NCBI GenBank assembly: GCA_963768655.1
Contig: CAVYIM010000006.1
Coordinates: forward strand, 32,001-96,000
DNA from: an uncultured Chloroflexia bacterium
GTDB taxonomy: Bacteria; Chloroflexota; Limnocylindria; Limnocylindrales; CSP1-4
DNA: 64,000 nucleotides
Reading direction: 5' to 3'
Positions 15,652 through 28,110 of this stretch are shown here, piece by piece. The notes beneath the pieces are model-generated. The model was not told where the DNA came from and did not search any database. It saw nothing but the letters and a program-made list of their open reading frames with translations. Each line of letters begins with the position of its first letter. Positions within the stretch are counted from its first letter, which is position 1. Made by a program: the position numbers and the translations under genes.

Positions 15652-16923
15652 ATGCCGCTACGGTCCGATTCCGAGAACTTCGCCCTGATACGTGTCATCG
15701 GTGTCGGGGGCGGCGGGTCCAACGCCGTCAACCGGATGATCCGGGCCGAGATGATGGGCGTGGAGTTCATCGCCTGCAATACGGATGCCCAGGCCCTTCT
15801 CCAGTCAGACGCGCCCCACAAGATTCGCATCGGCGACAAGATCACGCGCGGTCTCGGGGCGGGCGGCGATGCCTCCATAGGCCAGCGGGCGGCTGAGGAA
15901 GACGCCGAGAAGATCACCGACGCGCTGCGTGATTCAGACATGGTCTTCATCACGGCCGGACTGGGCGGCGGCACTGGCTCTGGCGCCGCCCCGATCGTAG
16001 CCGAGATCGCTCGGGACCTGGGCGCGCTCACGATTGGCGTCGTTACCAAGCCCTTCGCCTTCGAGGGTGTCCGCCGCAAGCTGGTGGCTGAGCGAGCGGC
16101 CGAAGCTCTCAAAGCCAAGGTGGACACGCTCATCACCATCCCCAACGATCGACTGCGCGACGTCGTCCAGAAGAACACCTCGTTGGTCGAGGCCTTCCGT
16201 TTCGTCGACGACGTCCTGCGCCAGGGCGTCCAGGGGATCAGCGACATCATCACCGTTCCCGGCCTGATCAACCTCGACTTCGCCGACGTTCGAGCCGTCA
16301 TGAAGGATGCCGGGTCGGCCCTGATGGGCATCGGTCGGGCGACCGGCGACAACCGGGCCCTCGACGCGACCCGCCAGGCTATCGCTAGCCCGCTCTTGGA
16401 GATCAGCATCAACGGCGCCCAGGGCATCCTGTTCAACGTCTCGGGCTCGTCCAACCTCAGCCTGTTCGAGGTCACCGAAGCCGCCGAGGAGATCCGCTCC
16501 GTGGCGGATCCGGAGGCGAACATCATCTTCGGCACGAGCTTCGACGACCGCCTCGGCGACGAGGTCATGATCACCGTCATCGCCACGGGCTTCGACGCCA
16601 GTCGCAAGCGCGAGTCCGCGCGGCGAGAGGCGGGTGCGGCCACACCGGGCACCGGCTACTCACAGCGCACGGACACCGCGGACTTCCTGGCGGAGCTGGA
16701 GCGCCAGCGCATCCACTCGGTGGAGCCGGTGCCGGTCCATATGCGGGGCGCGGGAACGTACGGTCCCACGGGCACGCTCGAGCGCGCCCCGGTGCCGGTG
16801 CCGATCCAGACCACGCCATCCGTTCGCCGGCCGCAAGTCGATCGGCCGCGGCCCACCTACGACGACACGGATCTCGAGATCCCGAGCTTCCTGCGGCGGC
16901 CGCCGCAGGAGGAGCAGGCGTAG
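15652..16923 (+). CDS. ftsZ: Cell division protein FtsZ
   Basis: [28 protein letters not shown]-terminal LEIPSFLRR. Confidence 0.98.
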
Positions 16924-16935
16924 CCGCTGGCCGCC

Positions 16936-17661
16936 TTGGCCGGTCCCGATCCCGAAGACGTAGCGGCGTTTTCGGCCGCGCGTGCGCGCCTCCTTTCGGT
17001 CGTCGACAATGCGTGCCGGCGGGTCGGGCGCGACCCTGAGCGCGTCCAGCTCGTTGCCGTCTCCAAGACCGTACCCGCCGTGCGGTTGGGCGCTGCCGTC
17101 GCGGCCGGGCTGACGGTCCTCGGCGAGAACCGTGTCCAGGAGGCCGAATCGAAGGCACCATTGCTGCCGGGCGCGAGCTGGCATCTGATCGGCCCGCTGC
17201 AGTCGAACAAGGCCCGCCGGGCGGTCGAGCTCTTCGACGTCATCGAGTCGGTCGACTCGCTCGATCTGGCACGCAGGCTCGATCGGCTGGCCGGCGAGCT
17301 CGGCCGGGCGCCTCTGCGCATCTATCTGCAGGTGAACGTGGACCGCGACGAGGCGAAGGCCGGCTTTCTGCCCGAAGCCCTGGCGGTGGAGCTGGCCGAG
17401 CTCGCGGGGCTGCCGAATCTGCGCTTGCTGGGGCTGATGACGGTCGGCCGGCTGGTGGGTTCGGCCGAGGAGGCAAGGCCCACGTTCCGGCGGTTGCGGG
17501 AGCTGTCTGGGCGGCTGCGCGGGGCGCCCGGGCTCGGCGCGCCCGGGCTCGGCGCGGGGCTGTCGATGGGCATGACGGACGACTACCCTGTGGCCGTGGA
17601 GGAGGGCGCCACGGTCATCCGCGTCGGCCGAGCCCTGTTCGGGGCGCGGCCGGCCGGGTAG
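16936..17661 (+). CDS. yggS: PLP homeostasis protein
   Basis: LVAVSKT, GENRVQE, HLIGPLQSNK, LSMGMTDDY, IRVGRALFG. Confidence 0.95.
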   Translation: MAGPDPEDVAAFSAARARLLSVVDNACRRVGRDPERVQLVAVSKTVPAVRLGAAVAAGLTVLGENRVQEAESKAPLLPGASWHLIGPLQSNKARRAVELFDVIESVDSLDLARRLDRLAGELGRAPLRIYLQVNVDRDEAKAGFLPEALAVELAELAGLPNLRLLGLMTVGRLVGSAEEARPTFRRLRELSGRLRGAPGLGAPGLGAGLSMGMTDDYPVAVEEGATVIRVGRALFGARPAG

Positions 17662-17748
17662 GGGTGAGCAGGCGTCTGCGGGCCGCCGGGCGGGATGATC
17701 GGGCCGTCGAGTGGCGACTTTACGGAACGCGACCATAATCGGGACGCG

Positions 17749-18064
17749 ATGGAATCCGATTTTCGTTTCGCGGATCGAACGCGCCGCTCGGAGGTTCGAA
17801 TTCGCCGTGCGCCTGACGCCCCGTGGCGGCGCCGATCGAGTCGACGGCGTGAATGAGGAGGGCGTGCTGCAGGCCAGGGTTTCGGCGCCGCCCGTCGGCG
17901 GTGCCGCGAATGCCGCCCTCGTCAGGCTCCTGGCCGATGAGCTGAACGTCGCCCGCAGCGGCGTGCGCCTCGTGGCGGGCGCGACCGGGCGGCACAAGCT
18001 CGTGGTCGTCGAGGGAGTCTCGCCCGAGGAGATCGCGGCCCGCTGGCCCGGCCTCAAGCTGTAG
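17749..18064 (+). CDS. yggU: DUF167/YggU protein, possibly with an extra base near 17800
   Basis: FAVRLTPRG, ARVSAPPVGGAANAAL, GATGRHK. ATG 17749 joins this frame only if one A in CGAATTC is removed; alternative in-frame GTG at 17711. Confidence 0.85.
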
Positions 18065-18106
18065 GGAGTGGCGCCGGCAGGCCGTCCCCGTCGCGGCGTG
18101 GCGCGC

Positions 18107-18372
18107 GCGGCCCCGGCCCAATCGCGGCGCGGCCCCGGCCCAATCGCGGCGCGGCCCCGGCGCGGCCCGAGCTCGGTCGCCCCAGTACGGCCCGGCCCAA
18201 TCGCTTGGGCTCCCCCGGCGCGGCCCGGCCGTCGCCGGCCGTCGCAGCCGGGGCCCGCCCCGGCGCGGCTAGTCGCGGCCCCGGCTGTCGCGGCGAGGCC
18301 CGTCGCGGCCCGAGCTCGGTCGCCCCAGCACGGCCCGGTCCAATCGGCTTGGGCTCCCCCGGCCCAATCGCT
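18107..18372. repeat. GC-rich patchwork of direct repeats
   Basis: 22-bp unit at 18107-28 and 18129-50; ~58-bp unit at 18161-218 and 18304-362; recurring CCAATCG core. Confidence 0.85.
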
Positions 18373-18380
18373 CCGGGGCA

Positions 18381-18575
18381 TCTGGTCAGACTTGCGCCCC
18401 ATGAGAGTTGGAGCGGATGAGACCGCCTCCGGCGTCCCCGGACCGGTCATCGGCCGCCCATCGAGCCCGCGCCCGAGCGTGGCCTTGGTGGTCGCGCGTG
18501 CTCCCGCCGCTTCACCACCCGCTGCAGGGCCGCGATCGGATGGCCAACTTTCGCTCCAGGCAAGTTCGGACCAGA
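18381..18575 (-). repeat. Inverted-repeat-bounded unit, copy A, overlapping the 3' end of the XRE-nuclease gene
   Basis: TCTGGTCAGACTTG-N7-TGAGAGTTG at 18381-410 and a degenerate inverse at 18545-575; homologous along its length to 32900-33123. Confidence 0.9.
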
Positions 18576-19227
18576 AGGCGATGCCGGATTCGGGCCCACG
18601 CTCGGGGTGGAGGAAGAGGGGCCCAAGGGATCTACCGTCTCGCGAGAGGGCCGACCTCAGCAGGGTGCGGTGGTCGGCGACCCTGCGGCGGTTGGTGCTC
18701 GAGGCGGCGACTATCAGCCAGCCACTTACGGATCGGGCCGGCCAACCGCGGCTCGCCGCGATTTGGGCCGCCAGCCGGCGCTTCCGGTCGAGCGTCCCGA
18801 TGAGCTCGTCCACGTCGACGATGGCGGTCTTGAGCTCGATCACCGCGACCGAGCCCGTTGCGGCGTGCCAGGCCAGGAGGTCGATGACTCCGCGCTCGCC
18901 GTAGATGGCGAAGGAAACCTCGGCAACCACGACCCAGCCGGGCCGGCGTGCGATCCAATCAGCGACGTGTTCGCCCAGTGCCGCATGTCGGGCGTTGATG
19001 ACGCGGTCGAACTCGCCGCCGGCTGATCTCGGGACGAGTTCCAGGCTGACGCCGAGCTTCGCCGCGATTCCGCGCAGAACGCGCAGCGATGCCCGATCGA
19101 GTTCGCCGTGCTCCAAGCGAGACACGAGCGCGGCTGACACTCCGGCCTGCGCCCCCAGATCGATCTGACGCAGGCGGCGCCTGACGCGAGCGGCTCTGAG
19201 CGCGAGGCCGAGGTGGAGATCATCCAT
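18447..19227 (-). CDS. XRE-type HTH fused to a PD-(D/E)XK nuclease-like domain (~259 aa; extra base near 18565)
   Basis: HTH LRQIDLGAQAGVSAALVSRLEHG; AEVSF..GERGVIDLLAWH...VIELKT. Removing one base gives FWSDLPGAKVGHPIAALQRVVKRR...GR* with its stop at 18447. Confidence 0.8.
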
Positions 19228-19550: not shown

Positions 19551-20921
19551 CTACGCGGCCAACATTTCGGCTCGCGGACCGTTCGCCCAGAGCCGGCGGA
19601 GCAGCCTGGCAAGGGCGGCGCCGTGGACCGCCAGGGGCGCCGGATAGCTGAACGTGAGCGTCCGGCTGGAACCCCGCAGCGTGACGCGGGCGATGAGCGG
19701 CGACAGAACCATCCCCACGCTTCGCATCTCGCGAAGCGACAGCCGTTCGGGCCGCGGGCCGACCACGCCCACCTCATCAGGACTCAGCCACAGACCGAGG
19801 GGCTGGCGCTGGCCTTCCCGGCGGGGGCTGTAGACGAAGGCGAGCAACTCACCCGCCTCGCGCCGGGCTGCATCATGGAGCGCCTGAGCTTCGTCGAGCT
19901 GGCGAAAGCGCTCGGCTGTTTCCTCGACGAACTCGACGGCCTCGGTCACATAGACACGACGCAGCCGTTCGCGGTTGCGCTCGGGCAGGAAGCTCGATGC
20001 GAGGGACTCGAACACGCGGACCTCGGCCTCGAGCTCCACCGGAAGGGCCACGTTGTGCCGGCCTCCCCCCGTCTGGAGGACGAGCCGCAAGGCATCGCGT
20101 TCATCCTCCACCCGCACGCCCGTGAGTTGCTCGACGGGCACCATGTCGACGTCCACGCCCCAATCGAAGAGGTACGAATCCGGGTTCGTGTGGTCGACCA
20201 GCCACAGGACCTGGCGGTCGGTGAGGAGCAGGAGTCCGGAACGGTGGTCTCTTCCGCCGCGGACGCGGGTGAGAAGCCCGGCGTCCGAACGCCACGGCCG
20301 CTCGATCGAGTAGTGCAGGCGCTCGTCCGGATCGAGCATGCCTTCGAGCCCGCGCAGGAAGCGCGGCGGCAGTCGATCCAACGAACGTTCGGCCTGGCTG
20401 TAGACGCCGCCCGACCGGAGAGCCTCCTCGGACATGCCCTCGGGCGGTCGCCATGCCAGACCGCCCGTGATCCGGCCGCGTCCCCGACGCTCCCGGAACG
20501 CCCGTCTTGCCGCCGAGGCGTGCTCCGAAGCGCGCGCCGCGTCGATCCACTCGGCGTCCGGCGACACACGCCCGACCGCTCGCAGAACGGCGTCGACGGG
20601 GAGCGTGGCGCCCGGCAGACGAGCCACCAGGACGAGACCGGCAGCGTCCGAGAAACCGCCGGCTAGCTCGGCGTCGATGCGAGCCCCAACGAAGCTGGAC
20701 GCCGGAAGCACCACCAGAGCCGGCACCTCGCGGCCGTGGCCATCGTCGGAATCGACGAGGAACCCCCGGTCGGCGCCGAGCCACAGGCCGCCGGCTCGGG
20801 CGCCGCGCGCCACGATGCCACCACGCGCTAGGTCGCGTTCGTAGTCGAGGCCCGGGCCGAGTGCCTCCTCGACCTCGACCAGGAGGGTGTGGCGGGAGTG
20901 GCGCGCGTCGCGGGCGGTCAT
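19551..20921 (-). CDS. Hypothetical protein: degenerate family I pyrophosphatase-like N-domain plus PH-like C-domain(s)
   Basis: VEVE..G...YERD...G.I...ADRGF...DG...ALV...FVG..I.A...G follows PPase spacing but lacks DxDPxD; LLLLTDRQVLWL resembles a bacterial PH strand. Confidence 0.6.
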   Translation of the reverse strand: MTARDARHSRHTLLVEVEEALGPGLDYERDLARGGIVARGARAGGLWLGADRGFLVDSDDGHGREVPALVVLPASSFVGARIDAELAGGFSDAAGLVLVARLPGATLPVDAVLRAVGRVSPDAEWIDAARASEHASAARRAFRERRGRGRITGGLAWRPPEGMSEEALRSGGVYSQAERSLDRLPPRFLRGLEGMLDPDERLHYSIERPWRSDAGLLTRVRGGRDHRSGLLLLTDRQVLWLVDHTNPDSYLFDWGVDVDMVPVEQLTGVRVEDERDALRLVLQTGGGRHNVALPVELEAEVRVFESLASSFLPERNRERLRRVYVTEAVEFVEETAERFRQLDEAQALHDAARREAGELLAFVYSPRREGQRQPLGLWLSPDEVGVVGPRPERLSLREMRSVGMVLSPLIARVTLRGSSRTLTFSYPAPLAVHGAALARLLRRLWANGPRAEMLAA

Positions 20922-22306
20922 TGCGCGCTCCGGTGATGCGGCACGGCCCGAGCCGCTCTCCGCAGCTGCCGCCAGCGACCGATCGCGCGAGCCGTTTCTC
21001 GCTCGCTGATCGCCGCCCGCCCGTAGACCGCCAGTTCGTAGTCCGCGGCGAGCAGCCCGAGCGGCAGGCGCGGGAGCCCGAGTGTCCCTGTGCGCGCGGC
21101 GTGGACTTGGGGCGTCTCGGCCGGTCGCCGTCCCAGCTCGCCACGGCCGGCGAGCTCGTCCAGGAGCGCGAGGTACGCCTCCGGGGCCGTCGCTGGACGC
21201 CGCGGCAGGGCTGCGCGAGGATGGATGGCGAGGCGCGGCAGGTGGAGGTTCAAGCTCGGCGGGTGGACTTCCCTGCGGCGCTCCTCGCGTGGGGGCGTGG
21301 CGACCTTCGGTTCAGGCCGACTGACGGCGAACCTGCGGAATCCGACGGCCAGCAGCACGATGACGGCGACGACACCGGCCACCACCAGCCAGCCGAGGGG
21401 CAGCGAGCCCCCGGGCACGGGTCCGCCGAGTGACGACACAGTGTGCGGGCCGCCGGAGCTCCCGGCGGCGGTCCCGGTCGTGGGAACGCTTCCACCTGTG
21501 CCGAAAAGGGAAGGCAGATGTATGCCGTTGAGCACCTGCCCGATCGCGGCCGCCAGCGCGACGAGAAGACCGCCGAGCGGTGCGAGCAGCAGGCCGATCG
21601 CACCACCGACCGGGCCGCCGATCGCAGTCAGCCCGTCCCGGGCGGAGGTCCCGCTCAAGATCGCGATCGGGATCCCCAGAGCCGCGACCACGACCACTAC
21701 GCCGGTCGAGACCATCGCCCAGGTGCGCCCGCCACGGCTTTCCGAGCCGAGTAGCTCGAGCTCCCGCAGGCGAGCGTGGCCGATCGCGAGCAACCCAGCC
21801 GCCACGCAGACCGCCGACCCGACGAGGGCCGGCCCAACGAAGGGGCCGGAGGATCGAAGGTGGGGCAACCACGAGGCGGCCAGCACCGGGAACGCATACG
21901 CGAGCGCCCGGGTCGAGGTTTCGATCTCGTCGTCCGCGTGCTCGTGGGCTGCGCCTCGAAGAACCGCGACGCCGAGCAGCCAGCCTGCGGGGTGAACGAG
22001 GAGGGCGCTCAGCGGGTTGTCCAGGGCCGCGAGGGTCGTCCGGGCCGCCGGATCGACGAGCCACCCGAGAGCGCCGGCAAGCACGGCGAGAGCCGCGATC
22101 CACGGCACCCGCGGCGTTGATCGAGGGCGCAGGCGAGCCCAGACGAGCCCGGCCACGGCCGCCGGGCAGAACTCGACGAGTGACAGCGGTGCGCTCGAGC
22201 TCGCGCCCAGGAGCGCGATGGCGGCGTACGCGACGCCTACGAGGCTGCCTTCGAGCAGGCCGTCGAGGGCAAGAGGCAGAAGATCAGCTCGCCAGGACCA
22301 ACGCAT
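20918..22306 (-). CDS. DUF4129-domain membrane protein
   Basis: Multi-TM protein with C-terminal AY..LL..L...RRPAETP..HA...YELAVYG; follows MoxR-DUF58. Confidence 0.75.
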   Translation of the reverse strand: MRWSWRADLLPLALDGLLEGSLVGVAYAAIALLGASSSAPLSLVEFCPAAVAGLVWARLRPRSTPRVPWIAALAVLAGALGWLVDPAARTTLAALDNPLSALLVHPAGWLLGVAVLRGAAHEHADDEIETSTRALAYAFPVLAASWLPHLRSSGPFVGPALVGSAVCVAAGLLAIGHARLRELELLGSESRGGRTWAMVSTGVVVVVAALGIPIAILSGTSARDGLTAIGGPVGGAIGLLLAPLGGLLVALAAAIGQVLNGIHLPSLFGTGGSVPTTGTAAGSSGGPHTVSSLGGPVPGGSLPLGWLVVAGVVAVIVLLAVGFRRFAVSRPEPKVATPPREERRREVHPPSLNLHLPRLAIHPRAALPRRPATAPEAYLALLDELAGRGELGRRPAETPQVHAARTGTLGLPRLPLGLLAADYELAVYGRAAISERETARAIGRWRQLRRAARAVPHHRSAQ

Positions 22307-23519
22307 CGCTCGTCCGCCAGTCCGGGGCCAGAGACCCGCTCGTCGCGGTCAGTCCGACCGCCCGCGCCGCCGCCACGGCACGCGGGCCGTCCGCGCCGAG
22401 CCCAACGAATTGCACCGGATGGCCCGACCGGTCGAGCCGGGTGAGAGAGGTGAGGTAAGGCGCCGGGTCGCGGGCGGCGAGCACGATCACGGTCGTGCCC
22501 GGCGGGATCGTCCACGGCAGCCGGGCGATGAGCCGCTCGAACGGCGCCGAAGGGACCTCGCTCAGGCGCCCCAGCAGGTCGGTGATGGCGGCCAGCTGGT
22601 CGCGGCCGGCTCGAGGCGCGACGAGGGCGAACCGATCGACCGTCCGGCTGAACGCAGCCGCGGCAAGCCCGCACGACGCACCCTGGGCGAGGGCGTGGCG
22701 CGCCAGCGACGCCGCCGCGACCATCAGGCTCTCGACGAGTTCTTCGTCGAAATGGAGCGTCCAGTGCGGGCCCGGCATCGTCTGCACGTCGAGCGCGATG
22801 AGGACCTCACGCGCCCGCGATGGGTCGAACCGCTTGCTCACCGCCGCCCCCGTCCTGGCCGTCGCCCGCCAGTGAACGCGTCGCAACGGATCGCCAGGCT
22901 GATACGGGCGGACACCGGCGAAGAGAGCCGGGTCTTCGAACAGGCTTCGCTGGGCGGGCAGGAATCCGAGTGGCAGGCGCTGCGGGCTGGCGATCCGCAC
23001 GGGCACGCTGCGCGGCCGGACGATGTACGTGGCGCGGTCTTCGTGCTCCTCGGTCGCGGCCCCGCGCCCGAACAGGTCGGCGACCGTGACCTGGACGGGG
23101 CCGAAGGAGTAGACGCCGCGGTGGTCCGCGGCGATCGTGAGGTGGCGCACGACGCGCTCGTACCAGCCTACGGTCCAGCGACTGCGCAGAACGGTGAATC
23201 CCGGTCGGTCGCTCCGCGCGAGCGGTTCGTCGCGCACCACGGCGCCCTGCGTCGCAAAGTCATCGATCGACAGCCAGGCCAGCGGCAGGGGTTTGTCGTT
23301 CCAGACGGCGATGTCGAGCGGTACTTCGTCGCCCCACACCGCCCGGTCACGGCCGATCCGCCTCTCGTAGTGGAGGTCGCGCAGGCCGTAGCGGGTCCAC
23401 AGCTCTGTTACGCCGGTGGTGAAGAGTGCGAGGAGCCCCACGAGCACGAGCCCCGGCGCCGCCGCGACGGCGCCGGCTGCCACCATGGCGAGGCCGAAGG
23501 CGAGTCCCCAGCGGGTCAT
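22284..23519 (-). CDS. DUF58 (vWA-like) protein
   Basis: RGVYSFGP...DLFG, GVRPYQPGDPLRRVHWRATAR; ATG 23519 overlaps the MoxR stop. Confidence 0.9.
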   Translation of the reverse strand: MTRWGLAFGLAMVAAGAVAAAPGLVLVGLLALFTTGVTELWTRYGLRDLHYERRIGRDRAVWGDEVPLDIAVWNDKPLPLAWLSIDDFATQGAVVRDEPLARSDRPGFTVLRSRWTVGWYERVVRHLTIAADHRGVYSFGPVQVTVADLFGRGAATEEHEDRATYIVRPRSVPVRIASPQRLPLGFLPAQRSLFEDPALFAGVRPYQPGDPLRRVHWRATARTGAAVSKRFDPSRAREVLIALDVQTMPGPHWTLHFDEELVESLMVAAASLARHALAQGASCGLAAAAFSRTVDRFALVAPRAGRDQLAAITDLLGRLSEVPSAPFERLIARLPWTIPPGTTVIVLAARDPAPYLTSLTRLDRSGHPVQFVGLGADGPRAVAAARAVGLTATSGSLAPDWRTSDALVLAS

Positions 23520-24520
23520 CGCTCGCGCACCGGCACCGGCACCGACGCAAGCACCTCGGCCAGCACCCGCTCGATGGTCGCGCCGCGGAGCTGGCGGTCC
23601 ACGTCGAGCAGGAGGCGGTGGCCCAGCACCGGGCCCACGACGGCGGCCACGTCGTCGGGCAGGATGAAGGCCCGGCCCTCGAGCGCTGCCCATGCCTGGC
23701 TCGCCCGGAACAGGGCCACGCTCGTCCGCGGGCTCGCCCCAAGGCGCAGATCGTCGTGCTCGCGCGTAGCCCGGACCAGGTCGACGGCATAGCCTTCGAC
23801 GGCATCGCTCACGACGATCTCGCTCACGGCCCGCCGCAGCGCGAGCAACGTGTCGCGATCGACGATCGGCGTGATCCGGTCGAGCGGCTCGTCGCCGCCT
23901 TGATAGCGCCGGGCGATGCGCCGCTCGTCGTCCCGGCTCGGGTAGCCCAGGGTCACGCGCAGCAGGAATCGGTCGAGCTGGGCTTCGGGCAGCGAGAAGG
24001 TTCCCTCCAGCTCGATGGGGTTCTGCGTGGCGACGACGAGGAAGGGCGCGGGCAGCGGCCGGGTTTCGCCCTCGATCGAGACCTGGCGCTCCTGCATCGC
24101 CTCCAGGAGCGCGGACTGGGTCCGCGGCGTGGCGCGGTTGATCTCGTCGACGAGCAGGACGTTGGCGAAGACCGGACCCGGCAGGAAGCGCAGACGTCCG
24201 GCTTCGAGAATGCTCGAACCGGTTACGTCGGTTGGCAGCAGGTCGGGCGTCCCCTGGATCCGGCCGAAGGACAGGCCCAGGGATTGCGCGAAGGCGCGCG
24301 CCAGCAGTGTCTTGCCGACCCCGGGAACGTCCTCGATCAGGGCGTGACCGTCGGCGAGCAGGGCAACGGCAAGGAGACGCAGCGCCGGCTCGTCGCTCAC
24401 GACCGCGACGGCGACGGCATCGCGCAGGTCGTGCCAGAAGCGGCCGACGCGCGCCTGACCGGAACTCGGATGCCCGGCGGCAGGCGTGGCCTCTGTCTCG
24501 AGCGGCTCCGTGGCGCTCAT
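23516..24520 (-). CDS. moxR: MoxR-family AAA+ ATPase
   Basis: [59 protein letters not shown]. Confidence 0.95.
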
Positions 24521-25062
24521 CGTTCCCCGCCGGGAGCGGTCGTGTCTGCGGGATCTGCCGCCCTCGGATCTGCCGCCCTCGGATCTGCCGCCCTCGGATC
24601 TGCCGCCCTCGAGGTGTCCGCCGGCGGATTGTCCGCCCGGGCGCCGAGTCGCTCGATCGCGCGTTCGAGCAGCTGCCGGTCGGCATCGTGCGTTAGCATC
24701 CGCAGTCCCTCCTCCAGGCTCACGAACCTCGCCTCGGCGAAGATCGGCTCGTGCTCGATCTCGCCGCCGACGCGGTGGGCGAGGAACCAGTCGACCTGCT
24801 TGCGGTTCGCCGTGCCGTTGTGGCTCTTGAACTGGTATCGCGTTGACCCAAGCGCGTCATCCAGCGCGATCTCGACGCCCGTCTCTTCGCGGACCTCGCG
24901 GCGGGCGGCAGCTTCGGGCGCCTCGTTTCGCTCGAGGTGGCCCTTCGGGAACGCCCACTCGTGCCCGCGCCGGATGAGGAGACACCTCCCCTCGTCGACT
25001 ACCACCGCACCCGCCGAGTGGTGGAACACGAGTCGAGATCGAGATGAGACGATCGAGCTCAT
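24517..25062 (-). CDS. NUDIX hydrolase (Ap4A hydrolase-like)
   Basis: [27 protein letters not shown]; GGAGG ribosome site before ATG 25062. Confidence 0.9.
24551..24610. repeat. 15-bp tandem repeat x4 (RAADP in the NUDIX tail)
   Basis: GGATCTGCCGCCCTC, four exact copies. Confidence 0.95.
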
Positions 25063-25080
25063 GGCTCGGCCTCCGCAATG

Positions 25081-25111
25081 AAAAAGGCTCCCGGACTGCG
25101 GTCCAGAAGCC
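25081..25111 (-). terminator. Intrinsic terminator forming the expression platform of fluoride riboswitch 1
   Basis: GGCTTCTGGAC-CGCA-GTCCGGGAGCC-TTTTT; its 5' arm is the aptamer pseudoknot strand. Confidence 0.85.
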
Positions 25112-25151
25112 ATCACCCGTCGACCGGGAAACTGCGCGAGCTTCATCGCGC
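25105..25151 (-). ncRNA. Fluoride riboswitch (crcB motif) 1
   Basis: GCGCGAUGAAGCUCGCGC hairpin...UGAUGGCUUCU; loop GAAGC pairs with GCUUC, a compensatory variant of the consensus; TAGCAT -10 at 25172-67. Confidence 0.88.
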
Positions 25152-25192
25152 GTTCAACTAACCGACATGCTACCGCGTCCCGGCCTGGCTGG

Positions 25193-26011
25193 CTAATCGT
25201 GTGGTTCGGTGTGGCTCGTGGCCCGATCCGTACCCTGGCCGTGCCCGTGCCCGTGCCCGTGCCCGTGGCCGTGGCGCCACTCCCAACCTTCGCGCCCGCC
25301 GAGCACTTCGGTCGCCTGCGAGGCGGAGACGTGCTGCTCATGGGTCAGGCGATGCTGGCGGTCGTAGGTGCTGTCGTGCGCGTAAGCCTCAAGCGATGCC
25401 CGAAGCTCCGCCAGCCGCTCGAGCTGTCGGTCCAGGACGGGCCGGACGCTCGCCAGCCGCTTCTCGTCGGCGGAGGCCGCCCGGGCCAACAGGACGATGT
25501 CCGGAAGGCACAGCGGCGCGCGGGCGAGCGCCTCACGCCAGCGCGCGCTGTCGAGGCGATGGAGCAGTCGCTCGATGGCGCGCTCGACCGCGTCGTCTTC
25601 GGCGGCACAGGCAGGGCAGTCGGACGCCGCGGCCGCCCGGTCGAGCTGGCGCGCACTCGTTCGACCCGGCTCGGCGTTCGCGTCGGCCAGCCGCTCGATC
25701 CGCTGGCGCAGCACCGACTCGAGGAGAATGGCGGCGCCGAGCGTGCCGCCCATCTCTTCGCGATCTGCCTCGAACAACCCGACGGTGTGGCGCCCGCAGA
25801 AGCCGCGCGACCTCTCCAGCACGCGCCGAAACCCTACGTCATTGACGCCTTCGTTGACGAGCGACCGGAGGAAGCGCCGGCCCTGGGCGACCCGGTGGCG
25901 GCACAGCGGGCAGCCGGCCTCGAACAACTCCTCGGATAGGCCGATGTCGACGTTGTCGTGCGCTTCAAGCTCCGCTGCCTTGCGACTCGCCTCGGTGTCG
26001 CGGCGGGCCAT
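25193..26011 (-). CDS. DUF6062-like Cys/His-rich protein with a His-Gly tail
   Basis: GCPLC, GFCGRH, CPAC, LCLP; C-terminal [10 protein letters not shown]. Confidence 0.7.
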
Positions 26012-26012
26012 C

Positions 26013-26516
26013 TCAGGCCTCTCCGTCAAGGGCCGGGCCGGCGGGCGGTTCCACGAGCGAGGCTGAGGCCACGCCGTCCGGCGATCCCGAAACCGGCCCG
26101 TTCGCCTCCAGGCCGACGTCTTCGAGGGCGGAGACGAGCTCCATCAGCCGCTCGACCGCCGGATCGAGCGTGGCGCGCAGGGCCGGGTCCACGTGACCGT
26201 AGGCTCGAAGACGGCGACTCTTGACCTCGGCCAGGCTCTCCCAGGAAACCCTCATTAGCCCGGCGATCTCGCGGGCAGAGTCGCGCTGTTGGATGGCGAG
26301 ATGGAACGCCTGGGAAACCGACGCGATCGTCGAGCGCAAGTCGGCCAGCGTCGTGTCGACGCGCGCTCGCTCTTCGCGCGACCAGGCCGGCCGAAGGCGG
26401 TGGTACAGGAGGCCGTCCTCGTCGCGGTCGAGCAGCTCCTCCACGCGGGCCAGGCGCTCCTCGAGCAGCCTGAGCGCCACGCTCACGGCGCGCTCCTGGT
26501 CGGGATTGAGGCTCAC
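26013..26516 (-). CDS. Hypothetical helical protein (167 aa)
   Basis: ORF packed between eno and DUF6062; LRLLEERL...WESLAEV...LRAYG. Confidence 0.75.
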   Translation of the reverse strand: MSLNPDQERAVSVALRLLEERLARVEELLDRDEDGLLYHRLRPAWSREERARVDTTLADLRSTIASVSQAFHLAIQQRDSAREIAGLMRVSWESLAEVKSRRLRAYGHVDPALRATLDPAVERLMELVSALEDVGLEANGPVSGSPDGVASASLVEPPAGPALDGEA

Positions 26517-26574: not shown

Positions 26575-27885
<1,311 letters not shown>

Positions 27886-28008
27886 TCAGCCTTTCCGCCG
27901 GCGGCTGGCCGGCCAACTCTGAGCGTGCCGGCGCCGAGCCAGTGTCGGAGTTTGGGGGAAGATCCGCGAAGGACCATGCTGGCTCCGGCTGCGGGTTGCT
28001 TCACGAGA

Positions 28009-28080
28009 AGAAGCTGTCATCGGCCGAGCCGCGGTTCGCCGGCCCCGGTCTTGGGAGGTCGGCTGGCGAGCCTCATCGCC
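28009..28080 (-). ncRNA. Fluoride riboswitch (crcB motif) 2, upstream of eno
   Basis: GGCGAUGAGGCUCGCC hairpin...UGACAGCUUCU pairing with the loop GAGGCU; TACAAT -10 at 28092-87, 6 nt before the aptamer. Confidence 0.78.
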
Positions 28081-28110
28081 GCCGCCATTGTAGCCGCAAT
28101 GCCGGCTTGA

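Follow-up and report, generated by a model that had tools for sequence, protein, structure and literature searches.

The leader and its operon

The 64,000-nucleotide (nt) window analyzed here is a stretch of contig CAVYIM010000006.1 from an uncultured Chloroflexota bacterium of the class Candidatus (Ca.) Limnocylindria (assembly GCA_963768655.1). It carries an 80-nt leader that resembles the fluoride (crcB) riboswitch, followed by five genes for a NUDIX hydrolase, a MoxR-type AAA+ ATPase, a DUF58 protein, a DUF4129 protein and a fifth protein, called gene 5. A reading made earlier from the letters alone (the original prediction) had described this arrangement as a fluoride-ON switch with its own -10 box, placed before genes with overlapping stop and start codons. 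The leader, its -10-like hexamer, its terminator-like hairpin and the five genes all lie on the minus strand where that reading had put them, and the gene junctions behind the leader consist of three ATGA overlaps and one 23-nt overlap (Table 1).

Table 1 Leader elements, operon genes and upstream features by position in the window
Feature	Position	Strand	Basis or remark
-10-like hexamer TAGCAT	25172-25167	-	Unchanged in six aligned NUDIX-type leaders
Leader, 80 nt	25160-25081	-	Sequence
P1 hairpin GCGCG-A-UGAAGC-U-CGCGC (GCGCG-AUGAAGCU-CGCGC)	25151-25134	-	Sequence, Rfam alignment, parse of 25 members
5′ pseudoknot strand GAAGC	25144-25140	-	Within the P1 loop
Linker AGUUU	25133-25129	-	Replaces uuAACC of RF01734
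P3 hairpin CCCG-GUCGA-CGGG	25128-25116	-	Sequence, parse of 25 members
Tail UGAUG-GCUUC-U	25115-25105	-	3′ pseudoknot strand GCUUC at 25110-25106; A at 25113, U at 25105
Terminator-like hairpin GGCUUCUGGAC-CGCA-GUCCGGGAGCC	25111-25086	-	11 base pairs, 7 of them G-C
U5 tract	25085-25081	-	Directly after the terminator-like hairpin
Shine-Dalgarno GGAGG	25074-25070	-	Sequence
NUDIX hydrolase, 181 residues	24517-25062	-	Pfam PF00293, E = 2.6e-21; ATG at 25062
MoxR-type AAA+ ATPase, 334 residues	23516-24520	-	Pfam AAA_3, E = 7.6e-58; AAA_lid_2, E = 6.4e-20
DUF58 protein, 411 residues	22284-23519	-	Pfam PF01882, E = 6.7e-11; hydrophobic amino terminus
DUF4129 protein, 462 residues	20918-22306	-	Pfam PF13559, E = 4.8e-8, residues 377-446 (carboxyl terminal)
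Gene 5, 456 residues	19551-20921	-	Pyrophosphatase-like fold, then two PH-like domains
DUF6062 gene, cysteine rich	25193-26029	-	Pfam PF19538, E = 1.1e-6; directly upstream of the leader, stop at 25193
Extra enolase	26575-27882	-	Pfam Enolase_N and Enolase_C; TIGR01060, E = 1.2e-191; downstream of the second leader
Second crcB-like leader, enolase type	28004-28089	-	RF01734, 20 bits, E = 0.006 (genome-scale scan)

Hairpin P1 closes an 8-nt loop that begins with AUG and holds the 5′ pseudoknot strand, and the tail that follows hairpin P3 holds the 3′ strand; the two strands, GAAGC and GCUUC, form five Watson-Crick pairs. The tail nucleotides A25113 and U25105 occupy the positions of the A40-U48 linchpin, a pair that passages of PMC8752731 describe, together with its role, for the Bacillus cereus fluoride switch. 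The 3′ strand is at the same time the 5′ arm of the terminator-like hairpin. Because GCUUC is common to both helices, pseudoknot and terminator are mutually exclusive, which is the ON logic that passages of PMC2864571 attribute to crcB RNAs. The overlapping terminator proposed at the outset, an 11-base pair hairpin with a U5 tract, and the ON-switch architecture, a pseudoknot strand shared with an intrinsic terminator, are both present. The claim that the leader has its own -10 box fared less evenly. The TAGCAT hexamer exists and is invariant in the six aligned leaders, but a simple sigma-70 scan returned no full promoter, and TAGCAT is a candidate promoter element.

Likeness to the fluoride riboswitch family

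The covariance-model check on which the original prediction had staked its case went against it at the scale of the window. At the gathering score Rfam reported tRNA only in the 64 kb and no match to the Fluoride family (RF01734). When a 91-nt stretch was compared with 4227 Rfam families, Fluoride ranked best (14.6 bits, E = 0.037), and model positions 1-64 were aligned in full. The alignment is collinear over the full length in a single register and takes in the tail and the linchpin; it sets GCGAUGAAGCUCGC over GGcGAUGGaGUUCgCC and UGAUGGCUUCU over UGAUGACUCCU of the RF01734 consensus. Two pseudoknot pairs differ from the consensus on both sides, G9-C46 being replaced by A-U and U12-A43 by C-G, and the pseudoknot is thus compensatory, as had been claimed.

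The leader has in common with RF01734 a P1 hairpin with an 8-nt AUG loop, a 5-base pair pseudoknot between loop and tail after UGAUG, a P3 hairpin between the pseudoknot strands, A and U at the linchpin positions, and a terminator whose overlap with the 3′ strand produces ON logic. The regulon is shared as well, with enolase and MutS-like genes, and with CrcB and a Na+/H+ antiporter in sister genomes. The variant differs in its score of 14.6 bits as against 34, in its loop (GAUGAAGC versus GAUGGnGU, with compensating changes in the tail) and in its linker, which is variable and 2-12 nt long in place of uuAACC. Because the model score and the linker tests fail, the leader is set apart from the RF01734 members as a variant. 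What had been called a crcB-motif aptamer therefore has the P1, pseudoknot, P3, UGAUG and linchpin elements of that motif, but it is not the canonical motif.

Conservation and recurrence of the variant leader

A terminator scan of 8 kb found one site where shuffled sequence gave a mean of 1.8, which is no excess. Single-sequence tests gave nothing, and the case for more than a chance resemblance therefore rests on conservation and recurrence. Among five relatives that share gene 5, the leader is 88% identical column by column and the flanks diverge. The U-tract is interrupted in two of the six closest leaders (AUAUUU and AUCUUU).

A covariance model of the leader (R1) was used for wider searches. 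The 5′ strands of P1 and P3 are one column out of register in R1, so that its matches reflect conserved sequence and the terminator, and some P3 columns are misplaced in its alignment; 25 members of the variant were parsed by a script that is independent of the R1 register. Within the genus, R1 matched 22 of 51 genomes at E ≤ 0.01, and its matches reached at least 54 bits in 13 of the 51. In a class sample of 151 genomes it matched six genomes from five other genera and two families (42-69 bits), and in a phylum sample of 151 genomes its sole match outside the class was a crcB RNA of canonical appearance upstream of a MutS-like gene. Weak R1 matches of 19-26 bits were not counted as members, and the four that were inspected (L075-L078) are unlike the motif. 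The linker-less form comprises 25 members in 22 genomes of several genera. Unlike RF01734, it was seen only in one Chloroflexota class, Ca. Limnocylindria, among the genomes searched.

The 25 members share an invariant core, GCGAUGA(A/G)GCUCGC and GGGUGAUGGCUUCU, and the UGAUG tail with the linchpin A and U is invariant in 25 of 25. Against this fixed core, the loops, the linker and the inner part of the terminator stem vary, and the linker has no common sequence. P1, P3 and the terminator each show changes on both sides of the helix. At the base of P1 stands a G-C pair in 15 members, G.U in 5 and A-U in 4, and one member has a C.C mismatch there. In relatives P3 reads CCCGC/GCGGG, CCCGU/GCGGG or CCCGU/ACGGG, so that a C-G, U.G or U-A pair occurs beneath a variable loop. 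A terminator stem of 11-12 base pairs forms in all 25 members (21 distinct), with changes on both sides at positions 8, 10 and 11. A regular expression for crcB-type RNAs written for this work gave 104 distinct instances, and in most of them, across classes, pseudoknot pair 9-46 is G-C or A-U. With the linker-less aptamer, a conserved and probable branch of the fluoride riboswitch class escapes the Rfam model.

The genes that follow the variant are a NUDIX gene and then MoxR or gene 5. In other loci the variant stands directly before MoxR (L026, L037, L071), before a protein with MutS domain V (Pfam MutS_V; L027, L038-L040, L072, L073) or before a metallophosphoesterase (L067), and mutS is a classic crcB-motif gene in passages of PMC2864571. 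At L067 (G047 contig C184, 3703-3975) a canonical riboswitch on the minus strand and a variant on the plus strand lie back to back, 114 nt apart; the canonical copy precedes NhaP-CrcB...DUF6062 and the variant precedes the metallophosphoesterase.

Canonical riboswitches at related loci

RF01734 matches of 34.5-47.9 bits occur in 11 of the 51 genus genomes, and the copies inspected stand before CrcB, an NhaP-like antiporter or a TauE-like protein. Gene 5 served as a second point of entry. A species-level genome collection holds 62 gene-5 loci, nearly all in metagenome-assembled genomes of Chloroflexota or Ca. Limnocylindrales, where its neighbors include MutS-like proteins, enolase, CrcB, NhaP, NUDIX and DUF6062. 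A MoxR-DUF58(-DUF4129) module adjoins gene 5 in 17 of the 62. The Rfam check at the gathering score covered 22 loci, 11 with a match to the regular expression and 11 with the MoxR module and no such match.

Canonical riboswitches of 37.2-43.1 bits lie directly before gene 5 at L117, L121, L127, L134, L140 and L141, and the 43.1-bit copy, at L134, heads the order gene 5-MoxR-DUF58-DUF4129. At L096 a 40.4-bit riboswitch precedes NUDIX-MoxR-DUF58-DUF4129-gene 5, the identical five-gene order, with the NUDIX ATG 189 nt downstream. The corresponding scores are 40.1 bits before MoxR-DUF58-DUF4129-gene 5 (L120) and 34.6 bits before NUDIX...MoxR-DUF58...gene 5 (L128). Further canonical copies precede MutS-like genes (L116, L139) and CrcB (L123). 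By regular expression and Rfam together, at least one crcB-type motif lies within about 7 kb at 43 of the 62 gene-5 loci. The recurrence in other genomes that the original prediction required was found at eight of the 17 MoxR-plus-gene-5 clusters, which carry a same-strand crcB-type leader upstream, four of them variant and four canonical. Because RF01734 matches above the cut-off precede orthologous operons in relatives, the comparison supports the assignment of the operon to a fluoride regulon.

The canonical riboswitch at L116 (49.4 bits) has a tail identical to the UGAUGGCUUCU of the variant, and its main difference is a UGAACC linker. The variant and canonical forms are connected because this RNA carries the tail of one with the linker of the other. 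The canonical riboswitches of the clade (L045-L055, L117-L141) have an extra hairpin between P1 and the linker. In the present register their middle pseudoknot pair is also mismatched (C.U or U.C), and they nevertheless score 34-49 bits.

The upstream enolase and its leader

The second crcB-like leader of the window precedes an extra enolase gene, and its 20 bits make it the best RF01734 match in the genome. It contains an inserted hairpin and keeps a GAACC linker, additional bases separate GAUGA from the pseudoknot strand, and a TACAAT box stands before it. A leader of this type precedes enolase at eight further loci, which with the copy in the window accounts for nine of the ten sub-threshold places inspected. 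A second, housekeeping-like enolase, 83% identical, is encoded on contig C3. Passages of PMC11139923 name enolase and pyrophosphatase as known riboswitch-linked fluoride targets, list exporters, Na+/H+ antiporters, pyrophosphatase, HAD phosphatases, enolase and formate hydrogen lyase among the riboswitch-linked genes, and state that further fluoride-resistance mechanisms exist. The locus resembles these riboswitch-controlled, fluoride-sensitive enzymes in having the extra enolase behind a crcB-like leader and the NUDIX and pyrophosphatase-fold proteins behind the variant leader.

Sister genomes encode CrcB and an NhaP-like antiporter behind canonical riboswitches in the corresponding island. 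The present assembly, which is 88.6% complete, contains no detectable CrcB (PF02537) or family-I pyrophosphatase (PF00719), and tblastn found no MutS-like, NhaP-like or TauE-like homolog in it. One CLC gene is present (C3:574111-575151), with no crcB-type leader listed nearby. The claim that the module works without export is unproven given the exporters of the sister genomes and the incompleteness of the assembly.

Proteins of the operon

Enzymes of the NUDIX family are pyrophosphohydrolases that depend on Mg, and fluoride strongly inhibits some of them. The NUDIX box consensus is GX5EX7REUXEEXGU, and a pattern search located an intact box at residues 41-63 of the operon protein. NCBIfam gave this protein sub-cutoff matches only, with MutT1 at the top. 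The MoxR protein has the P-loop PGVGKT in its translation and a Walker B motif VLLVDE at residue 121. Three further MoxR paralogs, 43-53% identical to it, are encoded in the genome, and the operon MoxR is regarded as a dedicated copy because it is one of four. The DUF58 protein shows 47-94% identity across 17 aligned orthologs. The DUF4129 protein is probably a multi-pass membrane protein, judging by hydrophobic stretches read by eye in the translation. The trio resembles MoxR AAA+ systems with vWA/DUF58 partners, such as the CbbQO Rubisco activase and MoxR1-RipA, in that AAA_3 is followed by DUF58 and a membrane protein with overlapping codons; it differs in that the partner set adds the pyrophosphatase-fold/PH protein at 17 of the 62 gene-5 loci.

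In three sister genomes the NUDIX gene is followed directly by gene 5, without the trio. This adjacency occurs at L088, L091, L092 and L094, and the trio is present in other genomes of the genus. Because MoxR-DUF58-DUF4129 stands between NUDIX and gene 5 in some genus genomes and is absent in others, it behaves as a cassette that is gained or lost whole.

The gene 5 product matches no Pfam or NCBIfam family, with no PF00719 match at E ≤ 5, and its 78 relatives are all unnamed proteins that lack a Pfam domain. An AlphaFold model built on an alignment of 30 relatives has a predicted local distance difference test score of 83.4 and a predicted template modeling score of 0.65. In Foldseek the family-I inorganic pyrophosphatases rank first (E = 8e-8, probability 1.0), with 22% identity to the Mycobacterium tuberculosis enzyme over about 160 columns and target template modeling scores of 0.53 to 5kde and 1wcf. 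VIA-align places the pyrophosphatase match in residues 7-150, with Z = 12.2 for 4xel (root-mean-square deviation 6.0, 128 aligned) and Z = 9.1-11.7 for seven more pyrophosphatases; PH domains, bacterial ones included, match residues 175-320 and 319-448 with Z of about 6-9. A HMMER search of the Protein Data Bank with the gene-5 profile returned only pyrophosphatases, at a weak E of 0.036.

The acidic metal-binding residues of family-I pyrophosphatases form a D-x-D-x-x-D pattern. In the weak profile alignment (E = 0.036) the family profile has GkGrelp (G-x-G-R-x-x-P) where the M. tuberculosis enzyme has DDGDPLD, and a nearby D-S-D-D stretch with an invariant D59 could shift the register. By this alignment the acidic metal triad seems to be lost. 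The label pseudo-pyrophosphatase given in the original prediction is thus matched by the fold of the first domain and, in a marginal alignment, by the loss of the triad. Gene 5 is probably not a spare catalytic pyrophosphatase, because it is unrecognized by sequence, its acidic stretch is replaced in the alignment and PH-like domains have been added. In the same respects, namely its sequence and its two PH-like domains, it differs from the riboswitch-controlled pyrophosphatases.

Alternative explanations

The favored reading, given a probability of roughly 0.6, is that the leader is a transcriptional ON switch, a lineage-specific and linker-less derivative of the fluoride (crcB) riboswitch, and that the genes form a fluoride island with a non-export arm. 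A number of results weigh against it. The score of the leader is below the RF01734 gathering score of 34, searches with RF01734 at E ≤ 10 found no match in 8 kb or in 261 nt and gave chance sub-threshold matches only, and at E ≤ 0.001 there was no match in the whole 3.37-Mb assembly. The folding energy of the leader is not unusual (z = -1.39, single sequence), RNAalifold on the six closest relatives detected no pair changed on both sides, and neither pseudoknot strand varies within the variant class, where support for their pairing comes from the between-class comparison only. The conserved unpaired linker that joins P1 to P3 in the RF01734 consensus is missing. An AAC linker is found in 0 of 40 distinct GAAGC/GCUUC instances and in all or nearly all instances of the canonical pseudoknot types, and fluoride binding may have been lost with it. 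The variant never precedes an exporter gene in the loci examined, and neither the regular expression nor Rfam detected a motif at nine of the 17 MoxR-plus-gene-5 clusters. Canonical and variant forms also coexist in one genome (G024, G047), which could mean that they have different ligands and not different tuning.

If they do, the variant would be a true descendant of the fluoride class with a changed ligand or a markedly shifted set-point, and repair and proteostasis genes would form a second tier on a signal separate from that of the exporters. The lack of AAC in all 40 variant instances, the presence of both forms in one genome, even back to back on contig C184 of G047, and the restriction of the variant to non-exporter genes in the loci examined all fit this explanation, yet the core and linchpin nucleotides are kept, and NUDIX, MoxR, gene 5 and MutS-like genes also follow canonical fluoride riboswitches in relatives. 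The ligand of canonical members, moreover, is bound through backbone phosphates close to GAUG and UGAUG and not through the linker. A changed ligand or set-point is considered unlikely. Nor does the leader look like a degenerate riboswitch relic that answers to no ligand and serves as an internal promoter and a terminator or attenuator of the upstream enolase-DUF6062 transcript. A relic would decay, whereas the core is invariant over several genera while the neighboring sequence diverges, and the element tracks the downstream gene, the upstream gene being a different one at L013, L026, L037 and L071, and takes its -10-like box along. These points make a relic improbable, even with the hairpin and U5 lying 82 nt past the upstream stop, an Rfam score far under the cut-off, a fold that is not unusually stable and a U-tract that is broken in two of the six closest leaders. 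That a protein or a small RNA instead binds the element, as an operator or an RNA-binding-protein site whose similarity to crcB is only convergent, is very improbable. In DNA form P1 makes a palindrome (GCGCGA..TCGCGC), and core conservation extends to the sequence and not to pairing alone, but convergence would have to produce a full-length, collinear RF01734 alignment in the same register with tail and linchpin positions, a canonical RNA (L116) that bridges both forms and a regulon that both forms share.

Proposed mechanism and significance

The anatomy of the leader, its conservation and recurrence, and the canonical riboswitches before orthologous operons are observations; fluoride binding by the variant leader and the roles assigned below to the operon proteins are inferences. 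In the favored mechanism of a fluoride-ON riboswitch, GGCUUCU would pair with GGGAGCC when no ligand is bound, and the resulting 11-base pair terminator before U5 would stop transcription ahead of the NUDIX gene. Fluoride, presumably as the Mg-fluoride cluster known from canonical members, would favor pairing of the P1 loop GAAGC with GCUUC. The A25113/U25105 pair would cap the pseudoknot helix, the terminator would be blocked and the five genes would be transcribed. The island would follow the logic of making more of what fluoride inhibits, as for enolase in passages of PMC11139923. The NUDIX hydrolase, like the enolase, would probably be overproduced to offset the inhibition of a Mg-dependent enzyme, and the NUDIX and MutS-like genes together suggest that DNA and the nucleotide pools are protected. 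The non-export arm of the response would consist of the MoxR-DUF58-DUF4129 trio together with the pyrophosphatase-fold/PH protein, most likely as a membrane-anchored AAA+ module for remodeling or metal handling in which gene 5 would serve as adaptor or client.

A more specific proposal is a two-tier response in Ca. Limnocylindria. Canonical riboswitches would control exporters, and the linker-less subclass, with another tuning or ligand form, would control a previously unknown non-export defense in which MoxR with DUF58/DUF4129, guided by a catalytically dead pyrophosphatase-fold/PH protein, strips or refits phosphoryl-transfer enzymes poisoned by Mg-fluoride. This proposal is possible and is regarded as doubtful; if true, it would provide the first defined physiological trigger for MoxR-DUF58 systems. 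The reactivation of Mg-fluoride-trapped enzymes, suggested in the original prediction, is likewise speculative. To our knowledge, MoxR-DUF58 systems occur widely, for most of them no trigger or client is known, and fluoride resistance beyond export is poorly understood.

Variant and canonical leaders at orthologous operons point to a fluoride defense that goes beyond ion export. Three gene sets gain riboswitch-level evidence within one class, namely NUDIX, MoxR-DUF58-DUF4129 and a pyrophosphatase-fold pseudoenzyme with PH-like domains. A link between MoxR/DUF58/DUF4129 or the gene-5 family and fluoride riboswitches was not found in print, where an earlier listing in gene lists or supplements is possible, and no publication was found that links Limnocylindria with fluoride. 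A fluoride-inducible MoxR-DUF58 system would offer a simple handle for a client search. The linker-less aptamer is a natural experiment on the parts that a very small anion-binding RNA needs.

Neighboring genes and minor features

DUF6062 adjoins the cluster in several related loci. The protein encoded in the window ends in a His-Gly repeat that its relatives do not have. A small gene without a family assignment (26013-26516, minus strand) lies with the DUF6062 gene between the enolase and the variant leader, and its relative in G011 has a crcB-like leader of its own (L060, 18.4 bits). The carboxyl terminus of the NUDIX protein consists of four RAADP units encoded by four tandem 15-nt repeats at the 3′ end of the gene (about 24550-24610, minus strand). 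A mir-341 match in the 8-kb Rfam scan at E ≤ 10 coincides with this repeat and was rejected as spurious. Beyond gene 5 lies a tRNA-Val gene, and past it an 855-residue protein (16660-19227, minus strand) whose sole recognized domain is an amino-terminal HTH_3.

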